A stretch of DNA of 64,000 bases from a virus, in IMG/VR virus record IMGVR_UViG_3300028840_006907, positions 96,001-160,000 of that record; one strand, given 5' to 3'. Shown here in pieces: positions 28,712 through 53,189 of the stretch. Within the stretch, counting starts at the first letter, position 1. Every line of letters begins with the position of its first letter. A program made the position numbers and the translations under genes. Under the pieces are notes generated by a model. The model saw only the letters and a list, made by a program, of their open reading frames with translations, was not told the origin of the DNA and made no database searches.

Positions 28712-28767
28712 CAAAGGAGACAGCCATTATGGTTGATGACTTTAGTGACTTTAGAAGTTTTAATTAT

Positions 28768-28843: not shown

Positions 28844-28870
28844 TTAGTAAATTAGTGTTTTTTAATAAAA

Positions 28871-28946
28871 GGGCGTATCGGCAAGCGGTTAAGCCACTAC
28901 TCTGATAAGGTAGCATGCGAAAGTTCAAATCTTTCTACGCCCACCA
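28871..28946 (+). tRNA. tRNA-Ile (anticodon GAT)
   Basis: Hand fold: acceptor GGGCGTA/TACGCCC, loop CTGATAA, CCA. Confidence 0.85.
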
Positions 28947-28965
28947 TAAATCTTAGGAGGACAAG

Positions 28966-29732: not shown

Positions 29733-29733
29733 C

Positions 29734-29819
29734 GCAGACGTGCTGGAATGGTAGACAGGCTTGGCTAAGGACCAAGTGTTCGTATGGGCGTGAGAGTTCG
29801 AGTCTCTCCGTCTGCACCA
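29734..29819 (+). tRNA. tRNA-Leu (anticodon read as AAG), type II
   Basis: Hand fold: acceptor GCAGACG/CGTCTGC, loop CTAAGGA, long variable arm, CCA. Confidence 0.75.
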
Positions 29820-29833
29820 TATAGGAAGTAAAG

Positions 29834-29998
29834 ATGGGCGAATGTAATTGCTGTTATATGACAATGGGAGAACATGCTTTGACTTGCCCTGCGTATAAAA
29901 GGGATAAAAGTCAGCCCTGTGATTGTTGCTATATGACAACAGGAGAACATGCTCTTACTTGCCCACAGTATGAAATTGAAGATAATGAGGAGGATTAA
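29834..29998 (+). CDS. small Cys-rich protein with internal tandem repeat (54 aa)
   Basis: Hand translation MGECNCCYMTMGEHALTCPAYKRDKSQPCDCCYMTTGEHALTCPQYEIEDNEED; RBS AGGAAG. Confidence 0.45.
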   Translation: MGECNCCYMTMGEHALTCPAYKRDKSQPCDCCYMTTGEHALTCPQYEIEDNEED

Positions 29999-30077
29999 GA
30001 TGGGACTGAACTCATCGTTGTTTAAACGTAAGTGGTTTGTAGATTAAGACCTGAGCCTGAGTGCTACAGGTCTGTAC

Positions 30078-30150
30078 GGGCTTGTGGCCAAGTTGGTAAG
30101 GCTCTTGACTTTTAATCAAGAAATCGTCAGTTCGATCCTGACCAGGCCCA
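30078..30150 (+). tRNA. tRNA-Lys (anticodon TTT)
   Basis: Hand fold: acceptor GGGCTTG/CAGGCCC, loop CTTTTAA. Confidence 0.85.
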
Positions 30151-30159
30151 TATGTAAAC

Positions 30160-30236
30160 GCTCCCGTAACTCAGTTGGTCAGAGTAGCTGATTCTTAATC
30201 AGCGAGTCGAGTGTTCAAATCACTCCGGGAGTACCA
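30160..30236 (+). tRNA. tRNA-Lys (anticodon CTT)
   Basis: Hand fold: acceptor GCTCCCG/CGGGAGT, loop TTCTTAA, CCA. Confidence 0.8.
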
Positions 30237-30255
30237 TAAGTAAAGTAAATAATTC

Positions 30256-30344
30256 GGAAGGGAGCCAGATATTGGTTAGCTGGGGCTGTCTGCTAAACAG
30301 TTGTTCTATAAGGACTTAGGGTTCAATTCCCTATCCTTCCGCCA
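30256..30344 (+). tRNA. tRNA-Ser (anticodon GCT), type II
   Basis: Hand fold: acceptor GGAAGGG/TCCTTCC, loop CTGCTAA, long variable arm, CCA. Confidence 0.8.
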
Positions 30345-30360
30345 TAAAAAGAAGATTAGC

Positions 30361-30603
30361 ATGAAAGATGAAGATGAACTTAAATGGTGTGATGACGATT
30401 GCAAAAATTGTGATGACGATTCAATAATTAAAGAAATACATGCTATTCGGAAGGAACATGCTAAAAGGTTTAATTATGATATAAAAGCTATGGGAGACGA
30501 TCACAAATTAAAACATCCAATCATTGTAGAGATGATGACTGCAAGTAGAAAAGGAGATCATGAAACTGTTAGAAAATTAAGACAAAAGTTGAATTCTATG
30601 TGA
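30361..30603 (+). CDS. small Cys-rich protein
   Basis: ORF trimmed to first ATG after tRNA-Ser; WCDDDCKNCDDD. Confidence 0.45.
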   Translation: MKDEDELKWCDDDCKNCDDDSIIKEIHAIRKEHAKRFNYDIKAMGDDHKLKHPIIVEMMTASRKGDHETVRKLRQKLNSM

Positions 30604-30767
30604 ATGAAAAGATTTTAAAAATGAATATGAAAAAGAAAGAACAGAAAAAGGCAATAAAATGGGGCAGAAGAAAGATATACATAGGAAGAAAAAGATTAAT
30701 GCCCGTAAACGAAAACCGTGTAATCGGGATTGCGAAAACTATAAAAAATTCAAGTGTTAATATATAG

Positions 30768-30845
30768 GGCCGAGTGGTGAAGTTGTTTTAACACGGTAGT
30801 CTGCAAAACTATTATGCGTCGGTTAGAATCCGACCTCGGCCTCCA
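30768..30845 (+). tRNA. tRNA-Cys (anticodon GCA)
   Basis: Hand fold: acceptor GGCCGAG/CTCGGCC, loop CTGCAAA, CCA. Confidence 0.75.
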
Positions 30846-31068
30846 GTTCTTTGAAATAAATAAGTATATCGAGTCCACGCGCAGATGTTAAGTCTGTGAG
30901 GAAGCTCAGGACATCACCGCTGACGGAAGGAGACGTAAGTCGTAGGTACTTCCTAGGATGCAACACAAACAGACCTATGCCGGTGAGCGGGGCTATGATG
31001 GTCGGGTTAGTGGCAAAGATAAATGTGGACATAAAACAGAATCCTGGCTACGGATATACTTATTATAC

Positions 31069-31175
31069 GGAGAGGTAGGTTTAATTGGTAAAATCAGTGC
31101 TTTGCACAGCACCTAAGCTAGCAAGGTGCCATTCCAGGGATGGATTTCGGGGTTCAAGTCCCCGTCTCTCTGCCA
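31069..31175 (+). other. atypical 107-nt tRNA-like element (canonical acceptor, D-arm and T-arm; aberrant anticodon region)
   Basis: GGAGAGG/TCTCTCT acceptor pairing, D-arm GGTTTAATTGGTAAAATC, T-arm CGGGGTTCAAGTCCCCG, CCA; middle holds GTGCTTTGCAC hairpin and GCTAGC palindrome. Confidence 0.35.
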
Positions 31176-31186
31176 ATAAATTATAC

Positions 31187-31275
31187 GGAGGTAGACCGGC
31201 TGGACGAGGAGCCTGTCTTGAAAACAGGTAGGGCTGTAAAAGGTCTTCGGGGTTCAAGTCCTCGTGCCTCCGCCA
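31187..31275 (+). tRNA. tRNA-Ser (anticodon TGA), type II
   Basis: Hand fold: acceptor GGAGGTA/TGCCTCC, loop CTTGAAA, CCA. Confidence 0.8.
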
Positions 31276-31351
31276 TAAAAACAATAGTTATCAAAAGGTA
31301 ACTATAAGTTCTTTGACATTTCGGTTATTATGAAGTAAGCACATATTTATA

Positions 31352-31430
31352 TGGTGAGCGTAGCTTAACTTGGTTAGAGCACTGGATTGTGGTTCCAGGA
31401 GTTGGGGATTCGAGTTCCCTCGCTCACCCC
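31352..31430 (+). tRNA. tRNA-His (anticodon GTG)
   Basis: Extra 5' G(-1) opposite C73, loop TTGTGGT, CCA. Confidence 0.85.
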
Positions 31431-31459
31431 ATAAATTTTCATTTTATATAGAATGAAAC

Positions 31460-31549
31460 GAGTAGGAGGTCAGATAGTGGTTGGCTGCACCGGACTGTAA
31501 ATCCGGATCTCGTAAAGGGACGCTGGGGGTTCGACGCCCTCCCTACTCA
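31460..31549 (+). tRNA. tRNA-Tyr (anticodon GTA), type II
   Basis: Hand fold: acceptor GAGTAGG/CCTACTC, loop CTGTAAA, long variable arm. Confidence 0.8.
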
Positions 31550-31563
31550 TTTGTCAATTTTAT

Positions 31564-31649
31564 GGAGAGCAACCGAATGGTTAGGAGGCGGTTTCGAAAA
31601 CCGTTAAGGCTGAAAGGCTAACTAAGTTCGATTCTTAGGCTCTCCGCCA
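31564..31649 (+). tRNA. tRNA-Ser (anticodon CGA), type II
   Basis: Hand fold: acceptor GGAGAGC/GCTCTCC, loop TTCGAAA, CCA. Confidence 0.8.
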
Positions 31650-32066
31650 TTAACAAACAGATTTTAAAAAAGATGATGCTACTCTTTTAATTGCTTCTTT
31701 ATCGGCGTTTTCCATTTGATTAACAATTTTTTTGGCCCAGGTATATCCAGAATCACCTCCCCAAACAAGCCATGCTACATAACCTTTATCTTTCCATGGT
31801 TCATTTTTATATTCTGGGTTTATCTTTTTATTCTTTTGATGACGGTCGAAGAAAGCTTTCATTCTTTTGACTGTTTTGGGAGATAAAATATCTCTGTTTT
31901 TAAGATTAACAGCTCTTTGAACACCAGACCCAACACCTTCTGCTTTTGCCTGTTCAACTGTTAGTCCTCCTTTACCACCGGCCATTCTTCTATATCTTAA
32001 ACCTTTTTCAGCTTCTTTGGCTACTGATTCAGGAGGTTTAAAATTGATATGTTCATATTTTTTCAT
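31650..32066 (-). CDS. hypothetical protein
   Basis: 138 aa ORF, Gly-rich GGKGGLT and WLVWGGDSGY motifs. Confidence 0.5.
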   Translation of the reverse strand: MKKYEHINFKPPESVAKEAEKGLRYRRMAGGKGGLTVEQAKAEGVGSGVQRAVNLKNRDILSPKTVKRMKAFFDRHQKNKKINPEYKNEPWKDKGYVAWLVWGGDSGYTWAKKIVNQMENADKEAIKRVASSFLKSVC

Positions 32067-32116
32067 AATAAATAACTCCTTATTATGTTTTTATATATTT
32101 ATAGATAATTATTTTT

Positions 32117-32202
32117 GGAGGATATCCGAATTGGTTTAGGGGCTCGGTTGGAAACCGAGTGGGCTCAATGCCTTGCAGGTTCGATCCCTGTGTCCTCCGC
32201 CA
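32117..32202 (+). tRNA. tRNA-Ser (anticodon GGA), type II
   Basis: Hand fold: acceptor GGAGGAT/GTCCTCC, loop TTGGAAA, CCA. Confidence 0.8.
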
Positions 32203-32282
32203 CTTTTTCAAAAAAACTTCCGAACAATTCTTGTTCTCATGTCGTATCATATATAGGGGCTGTTTTTTATGAAAGGTAAGAT

Positions 32283-32624
32283 ATGGGTCGATACCAAATA
32301 GCACTGGAGAAAAAACCTAAAAAGATCGAGTTAAATAAATCCGATACTAAGAAAATTGATATTTCTAATAAATCTGAATTAAAACAATCATATTTCACCG
32401 ATCTTAAAGTGATGATGGAGTTTATGGCTGAAAAGGGTGGTAATTGGATACCAGAAAAAGATCTTTATTTTGAAGAGATCCCTTTAGTAGCCTATAAATC
32501 TGATAACGAAATGGTTGTCATTACTGCAAAGGATATGCATCTTACGGAAAAGAATATAACGGAAATGGACAGAAAATCTTTTAGATCTGAGAAACCTCTT
32601 CGATTTAAAAAGTTTTTTGAGTAG
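32283..32624 (+). CDS. MxRY-family small protein (paralog 1)
   Basis: 113 aa; N-terminus MGRYQIALEKKPKK. Confidence 0.5.
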   Translation: MGRYQIALEKKPKKIELNKSDTKKIDISNKSELKQSYFTDLKVMMEFMAEKGGNWIPEKDLYFEEIPLVAYKSDNEMVVITAKDMHLTEKNITEMDRKSFRSEKPLRFKKFFE

Positions 32625-32636
32625 GATAGGAATCAT

Positions 32637-32945
32637 ATGAGCCGGTATCGTATCATAGTTGATGAAAAAAAAGAAGAAGAACAGATCCATTTAAGACAGG
32701 AACGAAATAAAGAAGAGAATAATCGCATATTTGACGATGTAAAAAAGATGAGTGACTTTATGTCCCTATTAAATTCAGTATGGGTTCCTACTCATTTTGG
32801 GTTCATTATGAAATACAGGGAATTTGAAGGAGTGATAACAGTTATTATAAGTACTGCAGAGTATAATAAAACAAAAGATCTTTTACCCAAAGAATTGTTA
32901 ATACAATTCGAAGCTCATGGAGTGGTAGTTTTTAAAAAATCATGA
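32637..32945 (+). CDS. MxRY-family small protein (paralog 2)
   Basis: 102 aa; N-terminus MSRYRIIVDEKK. Confidence 0.5.
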   Translation: MSRYRIIVDEKKEEEQIHLRQERNKEENNRIFDDVKKMSDFMSLLNSVWVPTHFGFIMKYREFEGVITVIISTAEYNKTKDLLPKELLIQFEAHGVVVFKKS

Positions 32946-33262
32946 GTAGATACAAAATAGCATTAAATAAGGGAAAGTCTCCCGAAGATAAAGAATTAAA
33001 TGAGTATTTTGCAAATAAACCAGAACATAGTATTTCGTTTATAAGTGCTGTAGATGTTTATAATTTTTTATCTGAAGAAAGTGATAAATGGTTCCCAGAT
33101 TCTGGGACACCTTTGATAATAAGTTATGTAAATAAAGATAAAAATAGATCGTTTATGATAACTCAATATAACTGGAATAAGACAAAGCATTTTATACCAG
33201 TATCTATTTTGAGATCCATTGAAGAAAGAGCACCGTTTTTCGTATCAAAAAAGAGAGTATGA
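32942..33262 (+). CDS. MxRY-family small protein (paralog 3)
   Basis: 106 aa; N-terminus MSRYKIALNKGK. Confidence 0.5.
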   Translation: MSRYKIALNKGKSPEDKELNEYFANKPEHSISFISAVDVYNFLSEESDKWFPDSGTPLIISYVNKDKNRSFMITQYNWNKTKHFIPVSILRSIEERAPFFVSKKRV

Positions 33263-33263
33263 A

Positions 33264-33788
33264 ATGGGACAAGAAATTTGGTTGTACCCAGATCCGGTTC
33301 AGATACCTAAGGTAAAAGAGTACGTTAAACTTTTAGGTAAGAGGGTGGATGATTATAATTACATCGATGGACCGGATTTTGATGGTTGGGAAATGAATTG
33401 TTGGATTGAATGGACAACAGTGGATCCCGAATGGGAGAGTGATACAGAAGAATACAGTTTTGAAGGTATGGATGAATTCTTAGAAATAGGTTATCAATCT
33501 CATCACTATAAGGGTGATTTCGCAGAATGTATTGCCTGGGAAATTAAAAAACGATTTACAATACTTAAAGTTGGTTGGGATTCAATTGGATGGTCCACTC
33601 AGTTCTGGGATAATGAGCCTTTTGATTTTCAGATAAAGATGAGACAAAAAACATTGAAAAAAGATTTGAGTGATGAAATGCGAAGGGATTTCGAAGAAGA
33701 AATAGTTATGATAAAAAAGATAAAAGAAGGCTGTATGGGTTTTGCCAAAGAGCTGTTCTTAAAAGCTGATCAATTACTAAAAAATTAA
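33264..33788 (+). CDS. hypothetical Trp-rich acidic protein
   Basis: ORF-track 33219-33788 trimmed to ATG just after upstream stop (MGQEIWLYPDP...). Confidence 0.5.
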   Translation: MGQEIWLYPDPVQIPKVKEYVKLLGKRVDDYNYIDGPDFDGWEMNCWIEWTTVDPEWESDTEEYSFEGMDEFLEIGYQSHHYKGDFAECIAWEIKKRFTILKVGWDSIGWSTQFWDNEPFDFQIKMRQKTLKKDLSDEMRRDFEEEIVMIKKIKEGCMGFAKELFLKADQLLKN

Positions 33789-33790
33789 AT

Positions 33791-33946
33791 ATGGGTAGAT
33801 ACGAGATAGCACTAGATAAGCAACCGAAGAGAGTTTTAAATTTGAATCATTTTAAACAACAAGCCCAAACTGTTATATCAAGCTGGCCTAAATGGAAAAG
33901 ACAGGGAGCGGGTAAAGAGGAAACAGCTCCAATTAAAAGAAAATGA
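33791..33946 (+). CDS. MxRY-family small protein (paralog 4, 51 aa)
   Basis: Hand translation MGRYEIALDKQPKRVLNL...; below ORF-track cutoff. Confidence 0.4.
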   Translation: MGRYEIALDKQPKRVLNLNHFKQQAQTVISSWPKWKRQGAGKEETAPIKRK

Positions 33947-33964
33947 GTTATTAAGGGATACAGT

Positions 33965-34318
33965 ATGAGTCGTTTTGATATTGCCTTGGGTAAAGAACTC
34001 CCAAAGGTAAAAAAGACCAAAAATTCTAAGAAAAGTAAGAAGGCTAAAAAGAAGGTTATTTCTCCGTATGATTTAAAGAGTAATGTAACTGTATTTACGA
34101 ATGCTCGTAAGATGTATGAGTTTATGGGTTTGGCAATAGGTTCTTGGCATCCTGTTATTTCTGACCCACCGGTGATTGGTTATCATAACCCGGCTTGGGA
34201 AGGGATCTCGGTTACAATTAGTGTTGAAGATTACAACAAAACAAAAAGTCCAATTAAGGGTATTAAGATGCCTGTTATGAGTCCTGTTGAAATTGTAGGA
34301 AATTTGTTTAGAAAATAA
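33965..34318 (+). CDS. MxRY-family small protein (paralog 5)
   Basis: 117 aa; N-terminus MSRFDIALGKELPK. Confidence 0.5.
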   Translation: MSRFDIALGKELPKVKKTKNSKKSKKAKKKVISPYDLKSNVTVFTNARKMYEFMGLAIGSWHPVISDPPVIGYHNPAWEGISVTISVEDYNKTKSPIKGIKMPVMSPVEIVGNLFRK

Positions 34319-34320
34319 AT

Positions 34321-34397
34321 GGCAGTGTAGCATAGTAGATTAATGCATTCGGCTCATATCCGGGAGATCGGAGGTTTAATTCCTCTCACTGCCACCA
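34321..34397 (+). tRNA. tRNA-Met/Ile2 (anticodon CAT)
   Basis: Hand fold: acceptor GGCAGTG/CACTGCC, loop CTCATAT, CCA. Confidence 0.75.
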
Positions 34398-34420
34398 ATT
34401 TACATAAAGAAAGAAGTAGT

Positions 34421-34621
34421 ATGACATATGAATTAGAATTTGATCCTGAATATGAAGAACAAATTCGTGAGGCAGAATTACTTGCTAGTGATATATGCCC
34501 TACGTGCCTTGGTTCAGGTAAGGTCTATGGTAAATGGAATACAAAAAAACGGTGTACTGACTGTGATGGTACAGGAAAACACCCGGATAATCATAAAGAA
34601 GAAAAGGAGCTTCCTTATTAA
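34421..34621 (+). CDS. small DnaJ-type zinc-finger protein (CXXCXGXG x2)
   Basis: Trimmed to ATG after tRNA; CPTCLGSGK and CTDCDGTGK. Confidence 0.5.
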   Translation: MTYELEFDPEYEEQIREAELLASDICPTCLGSGKVYGKWNTKKRCTDCDGTGKHPDNHKEEKELPY

Positions 34622-34900
34622 TGGCAACAAACAACCAGACTACAACGCGCTGGGATCCTAATGGTGAAATCGTGAAAAACTATGGTTGTTTGAGCGATTG
34701 TGACGGTGCGATAATCCGATGACGGTGGACTCCGTAGCTGAAGCTCCATATCAGCTTCTATGGGTAACAATGGAGATAACCCATAGCGCAGGGCTGTCAT
34801 AGCTTTAGAGTGTCATATAAGGAAGTATCCTTATATAAATTTATTAACCCTTTACAAAGGAGGTAGATATGCTATAACACAATAAACAAGGAGTTATAGT

Positions 34901-35137
34901 ATGTCTAGAAGTTACAGAAAGCCGTATGTAAAAGACGGCTATGGATCAAAGGGCAAAAGATTCATGAAGAATTATGCCAATCGGGTGGTAAGGCATTCTA
35001 AGGATGTTCCGAATGGCAGAGCCTATAAGAAATTATTTTGTTCTTATGATATTTGTGATTATTATTTCTACGTGGAAGTAAAGAGAAAGGATGATCCTTA
35101 TTTTGAACCAGAGTTCTGGAAATACGCCAGAAAATGA
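34901..35137 (+). CDS. hypothetical basic protein
   Basis: 78 aa ORF. Confidence 0.4.
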   Translation: MSRSYRKPYVKDGYGSKGKRFMKNYANRVVRHSKDVPNGRAYKKLFCSYDICDYYFYVEVKRKDDPYFEPEFWKYARK

Positions 35138-35309
35138 AATAAAAGTACAAGCTACAAGGATAATGCAGGAATTACTTAAACGCATCTTAGACAATTCTGC
35201 AGAGGTAGGACGACCAGACCCAGACATAAGATATGGCTCTTCTCTTCATGTTTTAAGTAAATCCATTGGGCAAGTCATGGCGGAGGAATTGGAGAAATTG
35301 AAGAAATGA
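35091..35309 (+). CDS. hypothetical protein
   Basis: 72 aa ORF overlapping neighbour in another frame. Confidence 0.35.
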   Translation: MILILNQSSGNTPENEIKVQATRIMQELLKRILDNSAEVGRPDPDIRYGSSLHVLSKSIGQVMAEELEKLKK

Positions 35310-35503
35310 AAGTTTCATTCCATTTTTTATGGTATGACTTCTGGGTCGGGTTCTTTTGGGATCAAAAGAAACGAATTTTGTACTTTTGCCCATTACCATG
35401 TGCCGTTATTAAAATGAAATTCAGGAAAAGGAAAATTGATAAAGGTTTTCGACATCCAAAATTAAGCTTCTTTTATAAAGTTTTTAAAGGGAAAAAAGAA
35501 TAA
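35306..35503 (+). CDS. hypothetical protein
   Basis: 65 aa ORF. Confidence 0.35.
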   Translation: MKVSFHFLWYDFWVGFFWDQKKRILYFCPLPCAVIKMKFRKRKIDKGFRHPKLSFFYKVFKGKKE

Positions 35504-35557
35504 CTATTTGTGCTGTAATAAAGATGGGATTTTAATTGTAGAAAAAGTTATAGGATT

Positions 35558-36142
35558 ATGATGAGTGAAGCTCGTAAAAGTTATGCTAAACGTTCATTTA
35601 TTATAGGTAAATTTAAATATATCTTTAAAATATATGTTACTGAAGAACTAATATTTTCATCAGAGGATCTATTCCCTTTAAGGGATAAGACTATGATAAC
35701 ATTTTTTAGAACGAATTCTTATATTGAAACAGCAAAACAAATGAATATCTCAATTCCTGAATTAAAGAAAAAGATCTTAAATACTATAGAATTACTTGGA
35801 GAAGTTAGATCATTCTATTTAACGAAAAAACTTGTTAGGCATAATAAAAAAAGTAAAGATTGTAATTTAGGAACTTATAGAACAAAAAGAATAAGAGTAA
35901 GTGAATATAAAAAACCATTAGTTGAAGAATTCAGATGTAATATTAAGAGGTATCAAAATATAATGGGTAAATTTTTGAGCCCTTTAAAAAAGGATGTTAT
36001 GGAATTAATATTGAAAAACGGCTCTTATTTAAAAACAGCTAAAAGATTGAATATAACACCCAAAAAAGTCAGAAATGAGCTTGTGGGAATAGTTAAATTA
36101 CTTAAAAAGGTGAAAAAGACTGATTGGATTATTCCATCATAG
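35558..36142 (+). CDS. DNA-binding protein with two HTH repeats (sigma-70 region-4-like)
   Basis: 194 aa; repeated YIETAKQMNIS / YLKTAKRLNIT helix-turn-helix-like segments. Confidence 0.5.
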   Translation: MMSEARKSYAKRSFIIGKFKYIFKIYVTEELIFSSEDLFPLRDKTMITFFRTNSYIETAKQMNISIPELKKKILNTIELLGEVRSFYLTKKLVRHNKKSKDCNLGTYRTKRIRVSEYKKPLVEEFRCNIKRYQNIMGKFLSPLKKDVMELILKNGSYLKTAKRLNITPKKVRNELVGIVKLLKKVKKTDWIIPS

Positions 36143-36328
36143 AAAAGAGATATTATGACCATATGTCCTTATTGTAATGAACAAAGAAGTTTAGAGCATG
36201 ATAATTCATGTGTTCTCTGGAAACGAAGAATATACATAGGTTTTACGAATGCCCTGATGTGCCTTTTCGGGATACTTTTAATATTTGGTCTAATGTTTCT
36301 TGTAATAAAGTATGGTTGAAAGATTTAT

Positions 36329-36410
36329 GGCCGAGTGGCAGAATTGGCAGACGCGCTAGATTTAGGATCTAGTTTCGAAAGAATTGGAGGTTCGATCCCT
36401 CTCTCGGCTA
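36329..36410 (+). tRNA. tRNA-Leu (anticodon TAG), type II
   Basis: Hand fold: acceptor GGCCGAG/CTCGGCT, loop TTTAGGA, long variable arm. Confidence 0.8.
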
Positions 36411-36438
36411 TTTAAAGAATTCTTTAAAGGTAAATAAG

Positions 36439-36741
36439 ATGAGAACTTATGGACAAATAGTAGATGATGTAAAAAAGGTTTCAGGGCCTCAATTAGTGGC
36501 TTTGTTCTGCGTCATAGCAGGTGAGTGTATAAAAAAGAAATGTTTCAATCCTGGTGGGATGAAAACAACTATTGCCAGAATAGAAAACAGAATTGCTGAA
36601 GAAATGGGTAAAGAAGAACCTAAACCTAAGATAGCGGAATTAACGTGTGGAAGTTGTGGAGCCACTTACACTTTAGATACGAATTATATACATCGTACAT
36701 GTGGCTTACGGGGCTGTAAAGGTAAGTTACATAAATTATAA
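36439..36741 (+). CDS. zinc-ribbon protein
   Basis: 100 aa; CGSCG...CGLRGC. Confidence 0.45.
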   Translation: MRTYGQIVDDVKKVSGPQLVALFCVIAGECIKKKCFNPGGMKTTIARIENRIAEEMGKEEPKPKIAELTCGSCGATYTLDTNYIHRTCGLRGCKGKLHKL

Positions 36742-36749
36742 ATAAAAAT

Positions 36750-36833
36750 GATCGGGTGGAGGAATTGGGATACTCAGCAAATTTAAGCTTTGCTGTCCTT
36801 TGTGACATGCGGGTTCGATTCCCGCCCCGATTA
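36750..36833 (+). tRNA. tRNA-Leu (anticodon TAA), type II
   Basis: Hand fold: acceptor GATCGGG/CCCGATT, loop TTTAAGC, long variable arm. Confidence 0.8.
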
Positions 36834-36846
36834 TTATATAATAATT

Positions 36847-37323
36847 ATGGTTTACAAAAATTGTAGAACATACGGCCCTTATGAAGGTAAAGATGGTAGA
36901 CTAAGAGTATGTGTAGTTTACCCTGATTTGAGTAAAAGAACAGTATCATATCCTAAATATCTTATGGAGAAACATTTGAATAGATATTTAGAAAAGAATG
37001 AAACAATAGATCATAAAGATGAAAATCCTTTAAATAATAAATTAAGTAATTTGAATATTCTTATTAAAGGTGATCATTGCCGTAAACATGCTAAGAGATT
37101 GTTACCTAGAAGTTTTAGCTGCCCTCAATGTAAGAAACCGTTTGTTTTATCAGGACGAAGATTACATGATGCTATACAAAACAGAAAAAGAGGTAAAGTG
37201 GGTCCTTTTTGTAATAAAAGATGTGGGGGAATATACGGAACAGATGTTCAAAATAAAAGAATAGAAGTTTTAGATGTGATTCAAATACCTGTTGAATATG
37301 AGCCTAAAATAAAAGAGATATAG
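36847..37323 (+). CDS. HNH homing endonuclease
   Basis: Trimmed to ATG after tRNA-Leu; IDHKDENPLNNKLSNL HNH_3-like motif. Confidence 0.7.
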   Translation: MVYKNCRTYGPYEGKDGRLRVCVVYPDLSKRTVSYPKYLMEKHLNRYLEKNETIDHKDENPLNNKLSNLNILIKGDHCRKHAKRLLPRSFSCPQCKKPFVLSGRRLHDAIQNRKRGKVGPFCNKRCGGIYGTDVQNKRIEVLDVIQIPVEYEPKIKEI

Positions 37324-37325
37324 AC

Positions 37326-37637
37326 ATGAATTTATATTGTCCAAAATGCAAGGAGCGTCGTGTTGCCCAAGTAGGTGCAGGGGCTTCTATAATGGTAAAT
37401 GGTAAACCTGCTGATTATAGCATTTTAAAAGGAATTATGAGATGCGGTGAGTGTGGTAGCTCATTGGTAGCAGAAGAAGATTTAATAGAATACAATCCTC
37501 ATAAATGTTTACCTGTTGGGTTTTCTTTTTGTGAAGGGTTTTGTCCACAGAAGACAGAAGATGGTAAATGCGGGTTTGATAAGTATGAGTTGTTAAGTTG
37601 TCCTTATGATTTAGGTAATCGTAATTGTAATTGTTAA
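37326..37637 (+). CDS. Cys-rich zinc-binding protein
   Basis: 103 aa with many Cys (CPKCKE, CGECG, CNC). Confidence 0.45.
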   Translation: MNLYCPKCKERRVAQVGAGASIMVNGKPADYSILKGIMRCGECGSSLVAEEDLIEYNPHKCLPVGFSFCEGFCPQKTEDGKCGFDKYELLSCPYDLGNRNCNC

Positions 37638-37644
37638 TAAATAA

Positions 37645-37727
37645 GGCCGGATGTTGGAATTGGTATACAAGGACGGCTCAAACCCGTTCGCCTTTACGGT
37701 ATGGGAGTTCGATTCTCCCTCCGGCTA
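37645..37727 (+). tRNA. tRNA-Leu (anticodon CAA), type II
   Basis: Hand fold: acceptor GGCCGGA/TCCGGCT, loop CTCAAAC, long variable arm. Confidence 0.8.
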
Positions 37728-37741
37728 AATAAAGGATTCTT

Positions 37742-38035
37742 ATGAATAAAAGGTGCTTTTATACGTCAATAGTGCAAAGCCGGTATCATATCAGAGGCAC
37801 TAAGCCACAGGAACCTTATATTCATTATATAGATCCTTATCTTCGGAAGGTATTGAGATATCCTCGGTGGTTAAGATCTGATCTTAAATTTGAAGTACAA
37901 GAGCCCGTTTTATCGAAAAAAGAATATTTAAAAATAAAAATGAAAATTATAGCTAAAATTGCAAAAAAAGCTACAGAGCAAATTCAAGCTGAAGAAGATA
38001 GACGCATTATCAAATTTTTAAAGAAAGTTGCATAA
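37742..38035 (+). CDS. hypothetical protein
   Basis: 97 aa ORF. Confidence 0.4.
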   Translation: MNKRCFYTSIVQSRYHIRGTKPQEPYIHYIDPYLRKVLRYPRWLRSDLKFEVQEPVLSKKEYLKIKMKIIAKIAKKATEQIQAEEDRRIIKFLKKVA

Positions 38036-38376
38036 TGGAAAATAAAGAAATTACTCTTAGGGAAATTGGTGAATTAGCCAATAAACTAGAAGATGAAATC
38101 GGAATAAATCTGGATGCTGTGATGAATAAGTTGACTCAGGAGGTTGGAGAGTTCAATGATGCCATCCAAAAGCACAGAGGTATTCACAGCCGGTCATGGG
38201 TACCTTTGGTTAAAGTGATAGATGAGCTAGGTGATGTCCTTGTGAATTTAATATCGATAGCTTATAGGCTTGAAATTAATCCAGATGCCTTTCCTGGTAT
38301 AGCTGAGAAGACTCTTAATAAGTTCAAAGAGCGTAAGAATGATTACATAGAAAATAAGGGGATTGATAATGTATAG
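38035..38376 (+). CDS. MazG-like nucleoside triphosphate pyrophosphohydrolase
   Basis: 113 aa; EVGEF...DELGDVLVNLISIA all-alpha NTP-PPase-like motifs. Confidence 0.55.
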   Translation: MENKEITLREIGELANKLEDEIGINLDAVMNKLTQEVGEFNDAIQKHRGIHSRSWVPLVKVIDELGDVLVNLISIAYRLEINPDAFPGIAEKTLNKFKERKNDYIENKGIDNV

Positions 38377-38557
38377 TTCGATTCAAACTGATTTAGTGAC
38401 CAGACGTGTCCTTATAAATGATTATGAGGTAAAGGATTATGAGGGAATTGTAAGAGCCGTCTTTCATGATGGTAAATATTTAAAAGCCATAGTGGAAAAA
38501 GAAGGTGGTGAATTAGAACAGTGTAATGTTGTAGAGATGAAAATTATTAGAAAATAA
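38363..38557 (+). CDS. hypothetical protein
   Basis: 64 aa ORF. Confidence 0.4.
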   Translation: MIMYSSIQTDLVTRRVLINDYEVKDYEGIVRAVFHDGKYLKAIVEKEGGELEQCNVVEMKIIRK

Positions 38558-38563
38558 ATATAC

Positions 38564-38642
38564 GCCCTGTTAGCTCAGTTGGATCTAGAGCAAGGCCCTT
38601 CTAAGGCTTAGGTCGGGGGTTCGAGTCCCTCACAGGGTGCCA
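38564..38642 (+). tRNA. tRNA-Arg (anticodon TCT)
   Basis: Hand fold: acceptor GCCCTGT/ACAGGGT, loop CTTCTAA, CCA. Confidence 0.85.
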
Positions 38643-38867
38643 TTTTAATAATGCTCTAATAGCGCATTTTTAATAAATGCGAATGGAGGATTATTATGGA
38701 CGAGAACAAGAAGCATTTAATTGAAATGGCTACACTTAAGTACGGAGAAATTTATCCCACTAGTGAATGTAATTCCCTCTTAGAATGATTTACTGTAGTG
38801 GGAGGTAAGTTGTACCTCTGGTTTAATTTAAAGGATGGGAATACAAGAGTCCTGTCACGGGAGATAA

Positions 38868-39443
38868 ATGATGGGGATAAGGATTGATATTGAACATGTC
38901 CGGAAGATCCAGGAAGAACGGAAAAGAATTAATTCTATACCATTAGAACAAATTGAATGGTACGAAGATGGGATAAAATTGGAAATTCATCCCGATTTAA
39001 TAAGAGAATTTTTATTTACAGGATTAGATAATACTGACTTCATAATAAGTGAAATGTACAAAGATAAAGGTCCTTACAGAGTTTTTAAAGATTCTGAATG
39101 TGGTAGATTATTTGATGAGAAGCAAATTGTCGGGCAGAAAATGTGCTATTTAGGTGATGTTGGTTGTGGCTCAACCGGTATAGGACCTAGACCTATATTT
39201 GTTGATGCTGAAGAGTTTGTGAAAAGAGTAAGTACTTTACGATCAGAAGGTATGACAAAAGAACAGTGTAAAGAGTTTGTCTTTAAGAAACTGGAAAAGA
39301 AAGGGTGTGGTTATAATTTTAGTGGATCCTGGATTGAATGGGATAGTCTTATAGAAGCAGTTTTCGGTAATTTAGAAACTGATAACACGAATCCAGTTGT
39401 CCGGAACGTAATTGAAATAATGAAACGTGATAAGTCCCTGTAG
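38868..39443 (+). CDS. hypothetical protein
   Basis: 191 aa ORF; stop overlaps start of tRNA-Arg. Confidence 0.5.
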   Translation: MMGIRIDIEHVRKIQEERKRINSIPLEQIEWYEDGIKLEIHPDLIREFLFTGLDNTDFIISEMYKDKGPYRVFKDSECGRLFDEKQIVGQKMCYLGDVGCGSTGIGPRPIFVDAEEFVKRVSTLRSEGMTKEQCKEFVFKKLEKKGCGYNFSGSWIEWDSLIEAVFGNLETDNTNPVVRNVIEIMKRDKSL

Positions 39444-39509
39444 TTCAACAGGATAGAACATAGGTTTCCTAAACCTAGTATTGGGGTTCGAGTCCCTACA
39501 GGGATACCA
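39434..39509 (+). tRNA. tRNA-Arg (anticodon CCT)
   Basis: Hand fold: acceptor GTCCCTG/CAGGGAT, loop TTCCTAA, CCA. Confidence 0.8.
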
Positions 39510-48763: not shown

Positions 48764-49390
48764 ATGATTGAGACACTTTTTTATTTTTGCTATTATTCTT
48801 ATTTACTAGGTGACTTAAAAAGTACTGAGATGTACTATTCTCTATTGAGAAAAGAATTCAAAGAACATGGCCGAAAAGATTCATTAGAATCTCACCAATA
48901 CCGAGAATTGAAAAAAGTTAAAGATGCTCTTGATTCTGGAACCATATCCAAGAAGGAATGGGTAGCTGATAAAGTTATTGTACCCAAGATTAATTCAGAG
49001 ATAAAAATAAAACAAGATGAATTGGTCCGGAAGATCCATATGGAGGGGCTAGAACAGCTTAAAGTTATCTTGGATGATTGTGTGCAGATATATAATATTG
49101 AGCATCCTTGTGGCTCCTACGGGGCTGTAGATATGGTTTATAAAGGATTGAATACGATCTATCCGGTGGAAGTGAAACGAAGTCGGGGAGAACATGATTT
49201 AATTGGACAAATAGGAAAGTATGATTTATATCATCGTTTAAGGCTCCATTACAAACATTATAAACATGTTCAACCGGTAACGATATGTCATTCTTATCAG
49301 AAATTTGCTTTAAATGAGTTAAGACAAATGAGGGTTTTGACCTTAATTTATACCATAATTAATAAGAAAATTACTCTAAATGTAATATAA
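48764..49390 (+). CDS. hypothetical protein, possible PD-(D/E)xK nuclease fold
   Basis: 208 aa; AVDMVY...IYPVEVKRS resembles D...E.K motif. Confidence 0.4.
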   Translation: MIETLFYFCYYSYLLGDLKSTEMYYSLLRKEFKEHGRKDSLESHQYRELKKVKDALDSGTISKKEWVADKVIVPKINSEIKIKQDELVRKIHMEGLEQLKVILDDCVQIYNIEHPCGSYGAVDMVYKGLNTIYPVEVKRSRGEHDLIGQIGKYDLYHRLRLHYKHYKHVQPVTICHSYQKFALNELRQMRVLTLIYTIINKKITLNVI

Positions 49391-49402
49391 ATTACTTTTC
49401 TA

Positions 49403-49431
49403 TTGACTTTAAGATCATTTAGGGGTATATT
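49403..49431 (+). promoter_or_regulatory. sigma70-like promoter TTGACT-N17-TATATT
   Basis: Near-consensus -35/-10. Confidence 0.5.
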
Positions 49432-49487
49432 TAAATTAAATTACCTTTTGTTAGAAAACGATAATTTCTAAAGAGTGTGTCAAAGAA

Positions 49488-49565
49488 ATGCTGAGAATGA
49501 CTTTTAATAGTAACCCAAATCCACAACCAAAGAATTTGCTATTCGTTGGGGTTGTTATGATATAG
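49488..49565 (+). CDS. micro-ORF (25 aa) with NPNPQP motif
   Basis: MLRMTFNSNPNPQPKNLLFVGVVMI between promoter and terminator. Confidence 0.35.
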   Translation: MLRMTFNSNPNPQPKNLLFVGVVMI

Positions 49566-49592
49566 TCATAATCTCTACCTTGGATCAGGAAA

Positions 49593-49628
49593 AGCCCCGG
49601 CAAATGAGAGTTCTCCGGGGCTTTTCTT
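49593..49628 (+). terminator. rho-independent terminator / conserved hairpin (copy 1)
   Basis: GCCCCGG-caaatgagagttct-CCGGGGC then TTTT. Confidence 0.6.
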
Positions 49629-49646
49629 ATTTAATAATGTACTAAT

Positions 49647-49979
49647 ATGAAATTCGGTTCTATCACAGGTTTTTATAAGGGAAGGATAGAACTTATGAAT
49701 AAAGTATCTTGGGATGAGTATAATAGTATGGTAAATTCAGCAATTGATAGTGGGTATCCTTATGCTAGTGGTATTTTAATAGCTGAATTAGAATCCATAG
49801 CTAAGAATCTAACTCATCAAAATAAAAAGATAGAGGAAACATTAGTAAAAGAAGATAAGGATAAATTGGAAATTAGATTGGAATCAGTAAAGTCATGGAA
49901 TAAAGATACTATTGAGGGTATCGAAAGAGCTATTAAAAAAGCTGATGAAGCAGTAAAAAAATTAAGTGTTGACATTTAA
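49647..49979 (+). CDS. hypothetical protein
   Basis: 110 aa ORF. Confidence 0.45.
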   Translation: MKFGSITGFYKGRIELMNKVSWDEYNSMVNSAIDSGYPYASGILIAELESIAKNLTHQNKKIEETLVKEDKDKLEIRLESVKSWNKDTIEGIERAIKKADEAVKKLSVDI

Positions 49980-49997
49980 TACAATTTGTGGTATCTT
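49969..49997 (+). promoter_or_regulatory. possible promoter TTGACA-N17-TATCTT
   Basis: Consensus -35, weak -10. Confidence 0.35.
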
Positions 49998-50035
49998 TAA
50001 ATTTACATAGTTTTTATTATAAGGAAAGTTTTAAA

Positions 50036-50110
50036 ATGTTGTTTACAAAAATACTCAATAATAACCCGCAACCTAATCAACCAACGAATATTTATTTGTC
50101 GGGGGCCTGA
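50036..50110 (+). CDS. micro-ORF (24 aa) with NNNPQPNQP motif
   Basis: MLFTKILNNNPQPNQPTNIYLSGA; RBS AAGGAAAG. Confidence 0.35.
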   Translation: MLFTKILNNNPQPNQPTNIYLSGA

Positions 50111-50141
50111 GTATTGTCCAAAAGTTAAACTGAAATCACAA

Positions 50142-50178
50142 CCCCCGGCGAATGAGAGTTCACCGGGGGTTTTTATTT
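50142..50178 (+). terminator. rho-independent terminator / conserved hairpin (copy 2)
   Basis: CCCCCGG-cgaatgagagttca-CCGGGGG then TTTTTATTTTT. Confidence 0.6.
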
Positions 50179-50179
50179 T

Positions 50180-50255
50180 TGGGATGTCGCCTAACGGTAT
50201 GGCACCTGACTCTGGCTCAGGAATAATCAGGGTTCAAGTCCTTGCATCCCAGCCA
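50180..50255 (+). tRNA. tRNA-Gln (anticodon CTG)
   Basis: U1:A72 acceptor TGGGATG/CATCCCA, loop CTCTGGC, CCA. Confidence 0.8.
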
Positions 50256-50279: not shown

Positions 50280-50353
50280 CGGGGTGTGGCCTAGTCTGGT
50301 AAGGCGTCTGCTTCGGGAGTAGAAAATCGGAGGTTCAAATCCTCTCATCCCGA
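50280..50353 (+). tRNA. tRNA-Pro (anticodon CGG)
   Basis: C1:G72 acceptor CGGGGTG/CATCCCG, loop TTCGGGA. Confidence 0.8.
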
Positions 50354-50371: not shown

Positions 50372-50926
50372 ATGAGACCCATGATATATCCTAAAAAGAA
50401 TAGGAAAATAAAAAGACCACGAAGATCGAGACCATTAAAAAGATGTGTTCATATTGATGGAAAAGAATGGAGGTGGGAAACAACAGGTCACTGGGATAGT
50501 GATGCAGGTAGTTATGGTTGTTTAACTGATCAGAGCGTTAAAATACTTTCTCCTGATAATAAATTTTTTTCTATACGTGCTCATGAAGTAATGAAATGTG
50601 AACCGATAAGATGGGAATGTTGTGTTGGTGAAAAATTAATAACAGTTTTACCGGGGAAAGTAAAACAGTATATAATAGATAATTTAATTGATCATGATAT
50701 TTCAAGATCGTTAAGGAGACGCATTCATATAGATGGTAGAGAATGGGGTTGGCAGTTTAGTAAAGGAAATCCTGCATATCAGCTCTGTGGAGTATCTGTC
50801 CGTTCTCCTGATAATCGGTATTTATGGATTTATGCAAAAGAGTTAGGATACGAGATTAAACCATCAGTAATTAAAAAGTATATAATTGATAATTTATTAT
50901 ATCGGGGTATAGCGCAGCCTGGTTAG
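50372..50926 (+). CDS. hypothetical protein with internal duplicated ~75-aa module
   Basis: 184 aa; repeats HIDG(K/R)EW(R/G)W...SPDN(K/R)...YIIDNL; 3' end overlaps tRNA-Pro. Confidence 0.45.
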   Translation: MRPMIYPKKNRKIKRPRRSRPLKRCVHIDGKEWRWETTGHWDSDAGSYGCLTDQSVKILSPDNKFFSIRAHEVMKCEPIRWECCVGEKLITVLPGKVKQYIIDNLIDHDISRSLRRRIHIDGREWGWQFSKGNPAYQLCGVSVRSPDNRYLWIYAKELGYEIKPSVIKKYIIDNLLYRGIAQPG

Positions 50927-50979
50927 CGCGTCTGAATGGGGTTCAGAAGGTCGCCAGTTCAACTCTGGCTACCCCGACC
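50902..50979 (+). tRNA. tRNA-Pro (anticodon GGG)
   Basis: C1:G72 acceptor CGGGGTA/TACCCCG, loop ATGGGGT, CCA. Confidence 0.8.
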
Positions 50980-50998
50980 AAAGTTCTTTGAAAATTAT

Positions 50999-51274
50999 GG
51001 GGGTGTGGCAGAAGGGATATGCAGTCCTCAAAAAGTAGACAGGTCTGGGTAAAACCGGGTCATTACAGGAAGTTTGTATTCGCTACTGAAACGAAACAAA
51101 GGGAAGGTAGTGTAACGCTTACGGACTGGTGCTTGCAAGGGTTTACGGAAGACACTGACACGTTGCCTGGGATCTGGAGACAGCCCAGGAGGGTTTGTAA
51201 ATAACGGCAGGAAGTCCTTTTTCCCAATAGTGAGCTTTGGATGACTTATGCCGGTTCGAATCCGGTCACCTCCA
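50999..51274 (+). other. tRNA-like ends (acceptor GGGGGTG/CACCTCC, T-arm GCCGGTTCGAATCCGGT) enclosing ~200-nt GC-rich insert; unresolved structured RNA or intron-containing tRNA
   Basis: Acceptor complementarity and canonical T-arm at 3' end; no normal anticodon arm found by hand; GC content far above surroundings. Confidence 0.4.
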
Positions 51275-51360
51275 TCAAAATAAATTAAATAGATAGATAG
51301 GCAAACTGGCAAGCCATTTGGTTGTAATAGAAAATGTGTAGCAAGATCATAAAGACATAC

Positions 51361-51632
51361 TGGAGTGTAGCTCAGTGGCAGAGCGGGTGGCTGTCTTGGT
51401 TGGCAGCTCTTATAGGAAACTGTAAGATGAAAACTCGGTGAATTCAGGGAAACCTAAGTCTTAAACAGATATGGCAATCCTGAGCGAAGCCTTGAGAAAG
51501 GAACGTGCAGAGACTTATAGCGCCGAGCACCTAAGGTGAAAACTATGGTGATGAGATAGTCCAGGCCCTTGGGAAATCAGGGGAATTACTGTAACCACTT
51601 GGTCGGGGGTTCAAATCCCTCCACTCCAGCCA
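51361..51632 (+). tRNA. tRNA-Asn (anticodon GTT) interrupted by a group I intron
   Basis: Exon 1 51361-51394 (TGGAGTG...GGTGG-CTGT), exon 2 51592-51632 (TAA-CCACT...CACTCCAGCCA); spliced loop CTGTTAA; U1:A72 as in bacterial tRNA-Asn. Confidence 0.7.
51395..51591 (+). ncRNA. group I intron (~197 nt) in tRNA-Asn anticodon loop
   Basis: 5' exon ends in U; IGS GGCAG pairs with exon CUGU; R-like GCAGAGACTTATAGCG and S-like GAGATAGTCC elements; terminal G before exon 2. Confidence 0.65.
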
Positions 51633-52163: not shown

Positions 52164-52239
52164 CGGGCGGTCGCCTAATCTGGTATGGCACCACATTTGG
52201 GATGTGGAATAACTGGAAGTTCAAATCTTCTCCGCCCGA
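52164..52239 (+). tRNA. tRNA-Pro (anticodon TGG)
   Basis: C1:G72 acceptor CGGGCGG/CCGCCCG, loop TTTGGGA. Confidence 0.8.
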
Positions 52240-52253
52240 TATATTTTTAAATC

Positions 52254-52329
52254 AATAAGTTACTGGGATGTAGTTCAGTTGAAAGAACACCGGAATTTGG
52301 ATCCGGGGGTCGCAGGTTTGAGCCCTGCC
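52254..52329 (+). tRNA. tRNA-Gln (anticodon TTG)
   Basis: U1:A72 acceptor TGGGATG/CATCCCA, loop ATTTGGA, CCA. Confidence 0.8.
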
Positions 52330-52537
52330 ATCCCAGCCATTTAATTTTTTTATCAATATATTTACCACAAAGACGTATATTATTTATACAACTTAAAAAT
52401 AGGAATAATATATGACATAGATAAAAATACCACCCTAGATCCTCAAAATATTCAAACCTCCTTAAAACACGGTTATTATACCAAATGGTGTTATACCAAA
52501 CAGTACAATATTCATTCATTTAAACAGGAGAATAACC

Positions 52538-53115: not shown

Positions 53116-53189
53116 GCGCCTGAGGCTCTGAGGTGAGCAACTTGGACTCTAAATCCAAGTTTTTCAGGGTTCGACTCCCTACAGGCGCA
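53116..53189 (+). tRNA. suppressor tRNA (anticodon CTA, reads UAG)
   Basis: Hand fold: acceptor GCGCCTG/CAGGCGC, anticodon stem TTGGA/TCCAA, loop CTCTAAA (U33, CUA, A37), T-loop TTCGACT. Confidence 0.65.

Follow-up and report, generated by a model that had tools for sequence, protein, structure and literature searches.

Leader units with tRNA-matched codon runs in a giant phage: candidate ribosome-mediated attenuators of tRNA operons

What is the function of two copies of a module, consisting of a promoter, a micro-open reading frame (micro-ORF) and a GC-rich hairpin, that lie at 49403-50179 in a stretch of IMG/VR virus record IMGVR_UViG_3300028840_006907? The stretch (positions 96,001 to 160,000 of that record, 64,000 nucleotides (nt); called the window below, and all coordinates refer to it) is AT-rich (34% GC) and is set in a 388,651-bp metagenomic phage contig (JGI 3300017963, Ga0180437_10000019), with which a 469,617-bp contig shares proteins. 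It is a piece of a giant phage genome, and no close relative of it was found among GenBank phages, where similarity is limited to tRNA-Pro. The initial annotation, made from the letters alone, offered three readings: small RNAs (sRNAs), leader-peptide attenuators, or small secreted or modified peptides. Our analysis indicates that the two units, U1 and U2 (also named D1 and D2, both preceding tRNA cluster D), are very probably ribosome-mediated attenuators of the trp/his type that control an operon of Gln, Pro and Asn tRNAs, and that three like units are present elsewhere in the window.

Anatomy of U1 and U2 and the tRNA genes behind them

The sigma70-like promoter, the Asn/Pro/Gln-rich micro-ORF of 24-25 codons and the GC hairpin with its T-tract, which had been proposed for each unit, were all confirmed. 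The features of the two units are as follows.

49403-49632, + strand: U1, whole unit
49403-49431, + strand: U1 promoter, TTGACT-N17-TATATT
49488-49565, + strand: U1 leader ORF, MLRMTFNSNPNPQPKNLLFVGVVMI, stop codon TAG
49506-49535, + strand: U1 control-codon run, AAT AGT AAC CCA AAT CCA CAA CCA AAG AAT
49545-49553, + strand: U1 antiterminator strand (segment 2), GTTGGGGTT, pairs with terminator 5' arm AAGCCCCGGC
49589-49632, + strand: U1 intrinsic terminator, with 12-bp lower stem, internal loop, upper stem, GAGA tetraloop and T-tract (hairpin proper 49589-49626)
49969-50179, + strand: U2, whole unit
49969-49997, + strand: U2 promoter, TTGACA-N17-TATCTT
50036-50110, + strand: U2 leader ORF, MLFTKILNNNPQPNQPTNIYLSGA, stop codon TGA
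50057-50089, + strand: U2 control-codon run (CCG, CCT, CCA, CAA, AAT, AAC)
50094-50105, + strand: U2 antiterminator strand, ATTTGTCGGGGG, pairs with terminator 5' arm CCCCCGGCGAAT
50140-50179, + strand: U2 intrinsic terminator (hairpin proper 50140-50171), with its T-tract touching the first tRNA gene

U1 and U2 can be aligned from promoter to T-tract with a mean column identity of 78%, and this full-length alignment indicates a duplication. A 22-nt hairpin motif, CCGGCRAATGAGAGTTCNCCGG, has exactly two copies in the window, both in U1 and U2, and none in 100 shuffles. An exact search of IMG/VR with the motif gave no match. The near-identical loop that had been described is a shared sequence, but it is really the upper stem (GAAU/GUUC) under a GNRA tetraloop (GAGA), and the idea that it is a protein-binding or sRNA seed motif was rejected for this reason. 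The compensatory stem change is also present, although it amounts to only one G-C to C-G swap at the stem base (AAGCCCC...GGGGCTT in U1 versus AACCCCC...GGGGGTT in U2). Generic promoter and terminator scans of 44-56 kb showed no enrichment over shuffles; their loop limit of 3-8 nt caused the U1 and U2 hairpins to be missed.

The genes probably under control, overlooked in the initial annotation, are the tRNA genes directly downstream, which are mirrored by the Asn/Pro/Gln composition of the leaders. The T-tract of U2 ends at 50179, and cluster D begins at the next base.

50180-50255, + strand: tRNA-Gln(ctg)
50280-50353, + strand: tRNA-Pro(cgg)
50903-50980, + strand: tRNA-Pro(ggg)
51361-51632, + strand: tRNA-Asn(gtt), split by a 197-nt group I intron (51395-51591)
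52164-52239, + strand: tRNA-Pro(tgg)
52264-52339, + strand: tRNA-Gln(ttg)

Cluster D thus contains Gln, three Pro, Asn and a further Gln tRNA. Because the U1 and U2 leaders are Asn-rich and no tRNA-Asn had been called, an undetected tRNA-Asn was predicted in this cluster. A group I intron (51385-51583) does interrupt a tRNA here, with exons at 51361-51394 and 51592-51632. Just one splice choice combines a U ahead of the 5' splice site, paired with G in P1, with a G ahead of the 3' site; it produces the anticodon loop CUGUUAA, and the spliced sequence is tRNA-Asn(gtt) according to ARAGORN. The intron sits in the anticodon loop, and standard tRNA finders miss or miscall the gene. An intron-less tRNA-Asn is found at the same place in related contigs (L015, L023 and L024, introduced below). 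Leader codon content therefore has a value for annotation, as it pointed to this intron-hidden tRNA.

Codon runs, alternative pairing and conservation

The window contains five units that are built alike, each with a promoter, a micro-ORF and an intrinsic terminator ahead of tRNAs, and each of its four tRNA clusters (A, B, C and D) has one or more of them in front. The three units before the other clusters had been missed in the initial annotation. When the window was scanned for strong GC hairpins followed by a T-tract, with long loops allowed, few sites were obtained in 64 kb, and these sit before tRNA clusters.

3833-4014, - strand: unit A, promoter 4014-3986
3976-3902, - strand: unit A leader, MKTTNNIISIAIEWRERDREVHIT, control codons 3940-3917
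3908-3897, - strand: unit A antiterminator strand, CACCTGATAGGG, stop codon inside
3866-3833, - strand: unit A terminator
3822-2426, - strand: unit A tRNAs Glu, Arg(acg), Met, Trp, Asp, Arg(ccg)
21565-21794, + strand: unit B, promoter 21565-21593
21633-21722, + strand: unit B leader, MTSINLSAIIKTAGATGTTVVVGTAGVLP, control codons 21666-21713
21722-21731, + strand: unit B antiterminator strand, GAGGAAGTCT
21755-21788, + strand: unit B terminator
21795-23328, + strand: unit B tRNAs Thr(tgt), Met, Gly(tcc), Gly(gcc), Val, Thr(cgt)
28171-28447, + strand: unit C, promoter 28171-28199
28242-28376, + strand: unit C leader, MMNLFKAQNTVKSIRLLSSSFKCSLCLSHMLYSIRGKQVWVGSM, control codons 28275-28352
28360-28370, + strand: unit C antiterminator strand, GGGTGGGGTCT
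28404-28441, + strand: unit C terminator
28463-28711, + strand: ORFan gene after unit C
28768 to 39509, + strand: 16 tRNAs of cluster C, namely Phe, Ile, Leu (four), Lys (two), Ser (three), Cys, His, Met, Arg(tct) and Arg(cct)

The leader ORFs (24-45 codons) lie 40-60 nt past a sigma-70-like promoter, and most of them have a Shine-Dalgarno (SD) sequence 5-10 nt before the ATG, as read from the sequence; an AGGA-type SD is visible in B, C, D2 and the relatives, and is weak in U1. The terminator hairpins (-21 to -24 kcal/mol, with a T-tract of 5-8 nt) begin 25-30 nt past the leader stop. Those of A, B and D2 are situated 7-12 nt before the first tRNA, and a small ORFan lies between in C and D1. 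The gap from terminator to tRNA is too short for a promoter, and the tRNAs would therefore be transcribable only by read-through. The pattern TTGAC[AT]-N17-TAnnnT occurs at seven sites on both strands of the window, five of which are the leader units. Since these units account for five of the seven strong sigma-70-consensus promoters, other genes may use a phage-specific promoter type.

The middle of each leader is a run of codons for the tRNA species encoded behind it. The run of unit A reads EWRERDRE and is followed by Glu, Arg, Met, Trp, Asp and Arg tRNAs; that of unit B, TAGATGTTVVVGTAGV, stands ahead of Thr, Gly and Val tRNAs; and that of unit C contains Lys, Ser, Leu, Phe, Cys, His, Ile and Arg codons. 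When the codons readable by each cluster were assigned by simple wobble rules, the own-cluster runs comprised 8 of 8 codons in A, 10 of 11 in D2, 8 of 10 in D1 and 17 consecutive codons in C. In leader B, 11 of 16 are own-cluster codons, the others being Ala, ACC and GTC. Compared with phage codon usage, binomial P values were 0.057 for A and 4e-4, 7e-4, 5e-3 and 1.4e-4 for the other four leaders, and all off-diagonal comparisons of leader with cluster were non-significant. In a blind scan, 638 ATG-initiated ORFs of 12-60 codons from six frames were scored against the four clusters regardless of position (2552 scores); the top five scores were precisely those of the five leaders, and every one of them was obtained with the leader's own downstream cluster. 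The tRNA species with a cognate leader codon number 5 of 6 in A, 5 of 6 in B, 15 of 16 in C, 3 of 6 in U1 and 5 of 6 in U2. For the three tRNA-Pro species, the U2 leader contains one codon each (CCG, CCT and CCA).

A second common property is a G-rich segment at the leader stop that can pair with the 5' arm of the terminator. In full-length leaders the minimum-energy fold holds the terminator. When the 3' arm is withheld, as during transcription, the 5' arm pairs with this segment in all five units. The position of the segment relative to the stop codon is as follows.

Unit A: CACCUGAUAGGG, with the UGA inside the segment
Unit B: GAGGAAGUCU, beginning at the G of UAG
Unit C: GGGUGGGGUCU, one codon ahead of UGA
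U1: GUUGGGGUU, its end 9 nt ahead of UAG
U2: AUUUGUCGGGGG, stopping two bases ahead of UGA

The antiterminator duplexes have energies of -16 to -23 kcal/mol, a strength that only 0.05-0.9% of random 45-mers taken from the window reach with the same arm. In U1 (-16.2 kcal/mol) the duplex is matched by 0.9% of random genomic 45-mers, and in U2 (-23.3 kcal/mol) it is equalled by none of 1000 shuffles. The leaders were further analyzed with a ribosome model in which the mask extends from 15 nt before to 14 nt past the first A-site base, these limits being assumptions. With the modelled A site on any control codon the antiterminator forms, with 10-13 nt of the arm engaged. Under the same assumed limits, all five units lose the antiterminator once the last control codon is reached, at which point the advantage of the terminator rises from ~8-12 to ~20 kcal/mol in the footprint model. 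The leader-peptide attenuator, one of the options initially offered, is thus strongly favoured by a terminator, a mutually exclusive antiterminator at the stop codon and a run of regulatory codons.

Related contigs provide further sequences of two of the leader types: L008 (= L010) and L009 for C, and L015, L020, L023 (= L025) and L024 for D. An R2K ATP-grasp gene inside cluster C has homologues of 76-84% identity on the short C-type contigs, where promoter, leader, hairpin and tRNA-Phe follow in unchanged order. Their leaders (...CFKLCLSFSMLYSIRKH... and ...SFKHSLCLSGMLYSRIKLH...) have the control core in common with unit C of the window. The terminator differs, and the antiterminator changes with it (GGUGGGG/CCCCACC in L008, GGGGCGGGG/CCUCGCCUC in L009), including the change of a U-A pair of the antiterminator to C-G, as read from the sequences. 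R2K ATP-grasp homologues at ~50% identity were found outside tRNA clusters, and an IMG/VR scan with the C-type pattern returned L008 only.

For the D type, a homologue of a 184-aa cluster D protein led to L015, which begins at a U2-like leader, and the 18-mer GGGGCCUGAGUAUUGUCC, shared with L015, retrieved L020, L023 (= L025) and L024 from JGI metagenomes. A scan of genome contigs with this 18-mer gave four chance matches without tRNAs, and a search with the promoter 17-mer GGGGTATATTTAAATTA likewise gave only chance matches without tRNAs. The D relatives have one promoter, one leader (e.g., MLFTKLNPNNPQPNQPRNFNLSGA), a hairpin and a T-tract, and then tRNAs in the order Gln(ctg), Pro(cgg), [Pro(ggg)], Asn(gtt), Pro(tgg), Gln(ttg). 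Their hairpin has the same upper stem and GNRA loop, the tetraloop being GAAA (GAGC-GAAA-GUUC in L015). The antiterminator pairing is present in five of six relatives examined. When six D-type units are aligned, 96.7% of cells are paired in the antiterminator helix, compared with 35-56% in slid registers, and 88% in the terminator core; where the terminator has mismatches, the antiterminator is paired.

The substitutions in the leaders are distributed unevenly. Within the ten control codons of the D relatives there are six synonymous changes, one Asn-to-Gln swap (within the set {N,P,Q}) and no other non-synonymous change, and in the flanking codons there are 2 synonymous changes, no within-set swap and 17 non-synonymous changes. 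Because substitutions are almost exclusively synonymous in the core and free in the flanks, selection appears to act on the tRNAs that read the core and not on the peptide. Of the conservation that the initial annotation had anticipated in related genomes, the hairpin and the control-codon core are kept and the remaining peptide is not.

Beside these conserved features, a CRISPR (clustered regularly interspaced short palindromic repeats) array with a 32-nt repeat (GTAACATTCCCCACATACGTGGGGGTTGAAAG) and at least 10 repeats is situated immediately upstream of the Asn/Pro/Gln leader promoter in L023 (6100-6715) and L025 (2993-2160, - strand).

Proposed attenuation and competing explanations

If U1 and U2 act as attenuators, the sequence of events would be the following. 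The sigma-70-type promoter would start a transcript whose first element is the leader ORF of 24-45 codons. While the cognate aminoacyl-tRNAs are plentiful, a ribosome translating the codon run would reach the stop codon and cover the G-rich segment 2, so that the GC hairpin and U-tract form and polymerase halts a few bases before the first tRNA gene. When any cognate tRNA is scarce, the ribosome would stall within the control run; segment 2, left free, would then pair with the terminator's 5' arm, so that polymerase continues into the tRNA genes. The fresh tRNAs would relieve the stall, giving a negative feedback and an on-demand tRNA supply. Candidate physiological triggers are a codon-usage mismatch with the host, host shut-off or tRNA loss, and tRNA-cleaving defence by anticodon nucleases. 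Extended to the whole window, the proposal is that the giant phage carries a near-complete tRNA set in operons, each under an attenuator that lists its tRNAs, with the ribosome as the sensor of depletion; we regard this broader picture as probable.

Several observations weigh against attenuation. The terminator is favoured by 4-22 kcal/mol in every equilibrium fold, and the switch must therefore be kinetic, as it is in classical attenuators. Unit A has its ATG ~9 nt past the -10 box, which makes its transcript nearly leaderless, and taken alone its codon match reaches a binomial P of only 0.057. In U1, cognate codons exist for just half of the tRNA species, and the gene behind this unit encodes a protein instead of a tRNA. 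Covariation is weak, since the available sequences are few and close, and the D alignment contains no double-sided compensatory change. Finally, four Ala codons in leader B and one Tyr codon in leader C have no counterpart: no tRNA-Ala or tRNA-Tyr was found in the window (including clusters B and C) or within 10 kb past each of its ends.

The same leaders could sense translation of cognate codons and yet act by another read-out, such as Rho access, RNase processing and precursor stability, or early-late timing, in which case the hairpin would mainly be a processing or stability element. The codon-to-tRNA match fits any translation-coupled mechanism, and the constant victory of the terminator in equilibrium folds is also compatible with this reading. 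We nevertheless consider it unlikely, because the hairpins are canonical intrinsic terminators (a GC-rich stem and a U-tract of 5-8 nt), the conserved competing helix lies exactly at the stop codon, and the footprint geometry agrees with classical attenuation.

The two other options in the initial annotation would dispense with sensing altogether. The units could be stand-alone genes for trans-acting sRNAs of ~150-190 nt, with incidental micro-ORFs and independently transcribed tRNAs. Promoter and terminator do delimit discrete short transcripts, the leader RNAs are more stably folded than shuffled sequences (U1, z = -3.9; U2, z = -2.1), and there is precedent for action in trans by attenuator-derived RNAs, such as rnTrpL (PMC7968998). 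This reading leaves unexplained why the ORF codons match the downstream tRNAs, why core substitutions in relatives are synonymous and why the T-tract abuts the tRNA without an intervening promoter, and the matches to Rfam are all sub-threshold; it is quite improbable. A terminated leader RNA of ~150-190 nt is expected as a by-product of attenuation, and a trans-acting role for it is neither supported nor excluded. Alternatively, the micro-ORFs could encode functional small peptides, secreted or ribosomally made and modified, with the hairpin merely ending the mRNA. Although the ORFs are conserved in relatives, mostly with an SD sequence, the five peptides are mutually unrelated except that each matches its own tRNA cluster; tRNAs follow immediately, and outside the control codons the peptide changes freely, as noted above. 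Among the neighbours, Pfam matches are limited to HNH endonucleases, a weak sigma-70 region 4 and, close to U1, an AcrVA2-like ORF, none of which is a modifying enzyme or transporter; most neighbours are unannotated. The peptide option is accordingly disfavoured and has very little chance of being correct.

Ribosome-mediated attenuation, the preferred explanation, is itself a classic mechanism and is known from the trp, his, thr and ilv leaders of amino-acid operons (PMC1183508, PMC3082878). The phage units resemble these attenuators in the short leader ORF, the regulatory-codon run, the intrinsic terminator and the exclusive antiterminator, whose 5' strand is masked by the ribosome at the stop codon. 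Further leaders of this kind are leuL and pheL, and thrL and ilvL are multivalent; like the latter two, the phage leaders have control runs for several amino acids. They differ in that tRNA genes, and not biosynthetic enzymes or synthetases, are regulated, so that the tRNA closes the loop, and in that the units form a set, each "barcoded" with the codons of its own operon, often one per isoacceptor. No sequence homology to any Rfam leader family was detected. The Rfam model His_leader (RF00514) gave full-length matches on U1 and U2 with 20.1 and 22.4 bits (+ strand), below its gathering score of 49 bits; scores on the - strand are similar, so that it is the hairpin that drives these matches.

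T-box riboswitches, which control synthetase and amino-acid genes of Firmicutes, bind uncharged tRNA directly and have no leader ORF. The phage units would similarly couple the state of a specific tRNA to terminator read-through via an antiterminator, but they have a translated-looking ORF and neither a specifier loop nor a T-box sequence. No T-box match was obtained at the Rfam gathering threshold in the window, and none at E <= 5 in 49380-50200. Among phage elements, Arbiol and colleagues (2010) reportedly described promoter-early stem-loop (PeSL) cassettes on both sides of small genes of T4-type phages. Repeated promoter and hairpin modules around a small ORFan are also seen here, with U1 and U2 around the gene at 49647-49979. 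PeSLs are not known to have a codon-run leader ORF or antiterminator, or a tie to tRNA genes. By analogy, recombination between PeSL-like modules could be a route of lineage-specific insertion; the duplication seems secondary to the attenuator function, since only one unit is present in the relatives. Phage T5 and Cronobacter phage CR3 resemble the window in their large tRNA clusters with small ORFs and HNH endonucleases. However, T5 has annotated promoters directly before tRNAs and its small ORFs are without cognate-codon runs, and CR3 has no hairpin, T-tract or leader ahead of its first tRNA. The possibility that either phage shares the leader design was therefore rejected.

The reasons why phages carry tRNAs, and how these are deployed, have been debated for decades. 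Codon compensation, replacement of degraded tRNAs and escape from tRNA-cleaving defence have been proposed, and phage tRNAs are known countermeasures to anticodon nucleases (PMC10264068, PMC11464382). In full-text literature searches, no account of phage tRNA genes controlled by a leader peptide was encountered. The novelty lies in the regulated genes, which encode tRNAs, in the phage setting and in the presence, within a single genome, of several leaders that are each specific to one operon and sample its isoacceptors. If attenuation is confirmed, it would be the first ribosome-mediated attenuation of tRNA genes and a viral tRNA homeostat, by which at least some giant phages supply tRNAs on demand and not constitutively. 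It would give a directly testable read-out of the tRNAs that become limiting during infection, and would extend textbook attenuation to a new class of regulated genes. The leaders might also be used as compact codon-specific sensors in synthetic biology.

Origin of the duplication and further elements

A 110-aa ORFan gene lies between U1 and U2.

49647-49979, + strand: ORFan gene, likely true start at 49695 with an SD sequence in front

Its product has no homologue among 5.8 billion proteins, and the gene is absent from the relatives. Proteins near the units are mostly ORFans, and IMG/VR protein searches with 49647-49979, 48764-49390 and 50372-50926 returned no relatives. In the related contigs a single D unit lies between a homologue of ORF 48764-49390 and tRNA-Gln. 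Since L020 and L024 have this single unit behind the ORF 48764-49390 homologue, the window phage appears to have gained the second unit together with the ORFan. Sequence comparison thus identifies U1 and the ORFan gene as a lineage-specific duplication and insertion that the relatives do not have. U1 occupies the ancestral position, and U2 keeps the ancestral leader sequence and the adjacency to tRNA-Gln. As U1 retains control codons, antiterminator and terminator, it probably still attenuates, and would now gate first the ORFan gene and, behind it, U2.

In the window phage only, ORFans are found directly after the terminators of both C (28463-28711) and U1 (49647-49979). They share a short S[WF]DEYN motif (BLASTP, 16 residues, E = 0.001 pairwise), which suggests gene insertion at regulatory cassettes; homology of the two was rejected because the match is just 16 residues. 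Downstream of the unit C ORFan, an SD-preceded mini-ORF (MVDDFSDFRSFNYGCLTDVVKVLD, 28729-28803) runs across the 5' half of tRNA-Phe and includes three Phe codons, and L009 has a similar mini-ORF (MDEDDFTDFINGCLAQ, ~494-544) ahead of tRNA-Phe. The divergent neighbour of unit B, ORF 20524-21405 (- strand), is the one with the weak sigma-70 region 4 match.

In total, 35 tRNA genes were called in the window, one of them an amber-suppressor tRNA(CUA), together with a transfer-messenger RNA (tmRNA) and the group I intron; for the 388-kb contig the count is 36 tRNA genes and a tmRNA. The suppressor gene (53116-53189) forms the end of cluster D. TAG ends leader B (21720-21722) and leader U1 (49563-49565), and TAG read-through in leader B would take ribosomes over the B antiterminator and terminator. 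TAG is the stop of 7 of 40 long ORFs, which indicates that the region uses the standard code. The phage tmRNA (15870-16282, - strand, 160 bits) could interact with ribosomes stalled on leaders. Two further elements resemble tRNAs. A gene at 31069-31175, within the range of cluster C, combines a GCA (Cys) anticodon with a very long variable arm; it scores 30 bits with the Rfam tRNA model and is not called by ARAGORN at default settings. A 280-nt element at 50998-51277, within cluster D, has tRNA-like acceptor and T arms and an insertion of ~207 nt; ARAGORN with introns allowed reports it as "Gln(ttg)", and matches to tmRNA models are weak.

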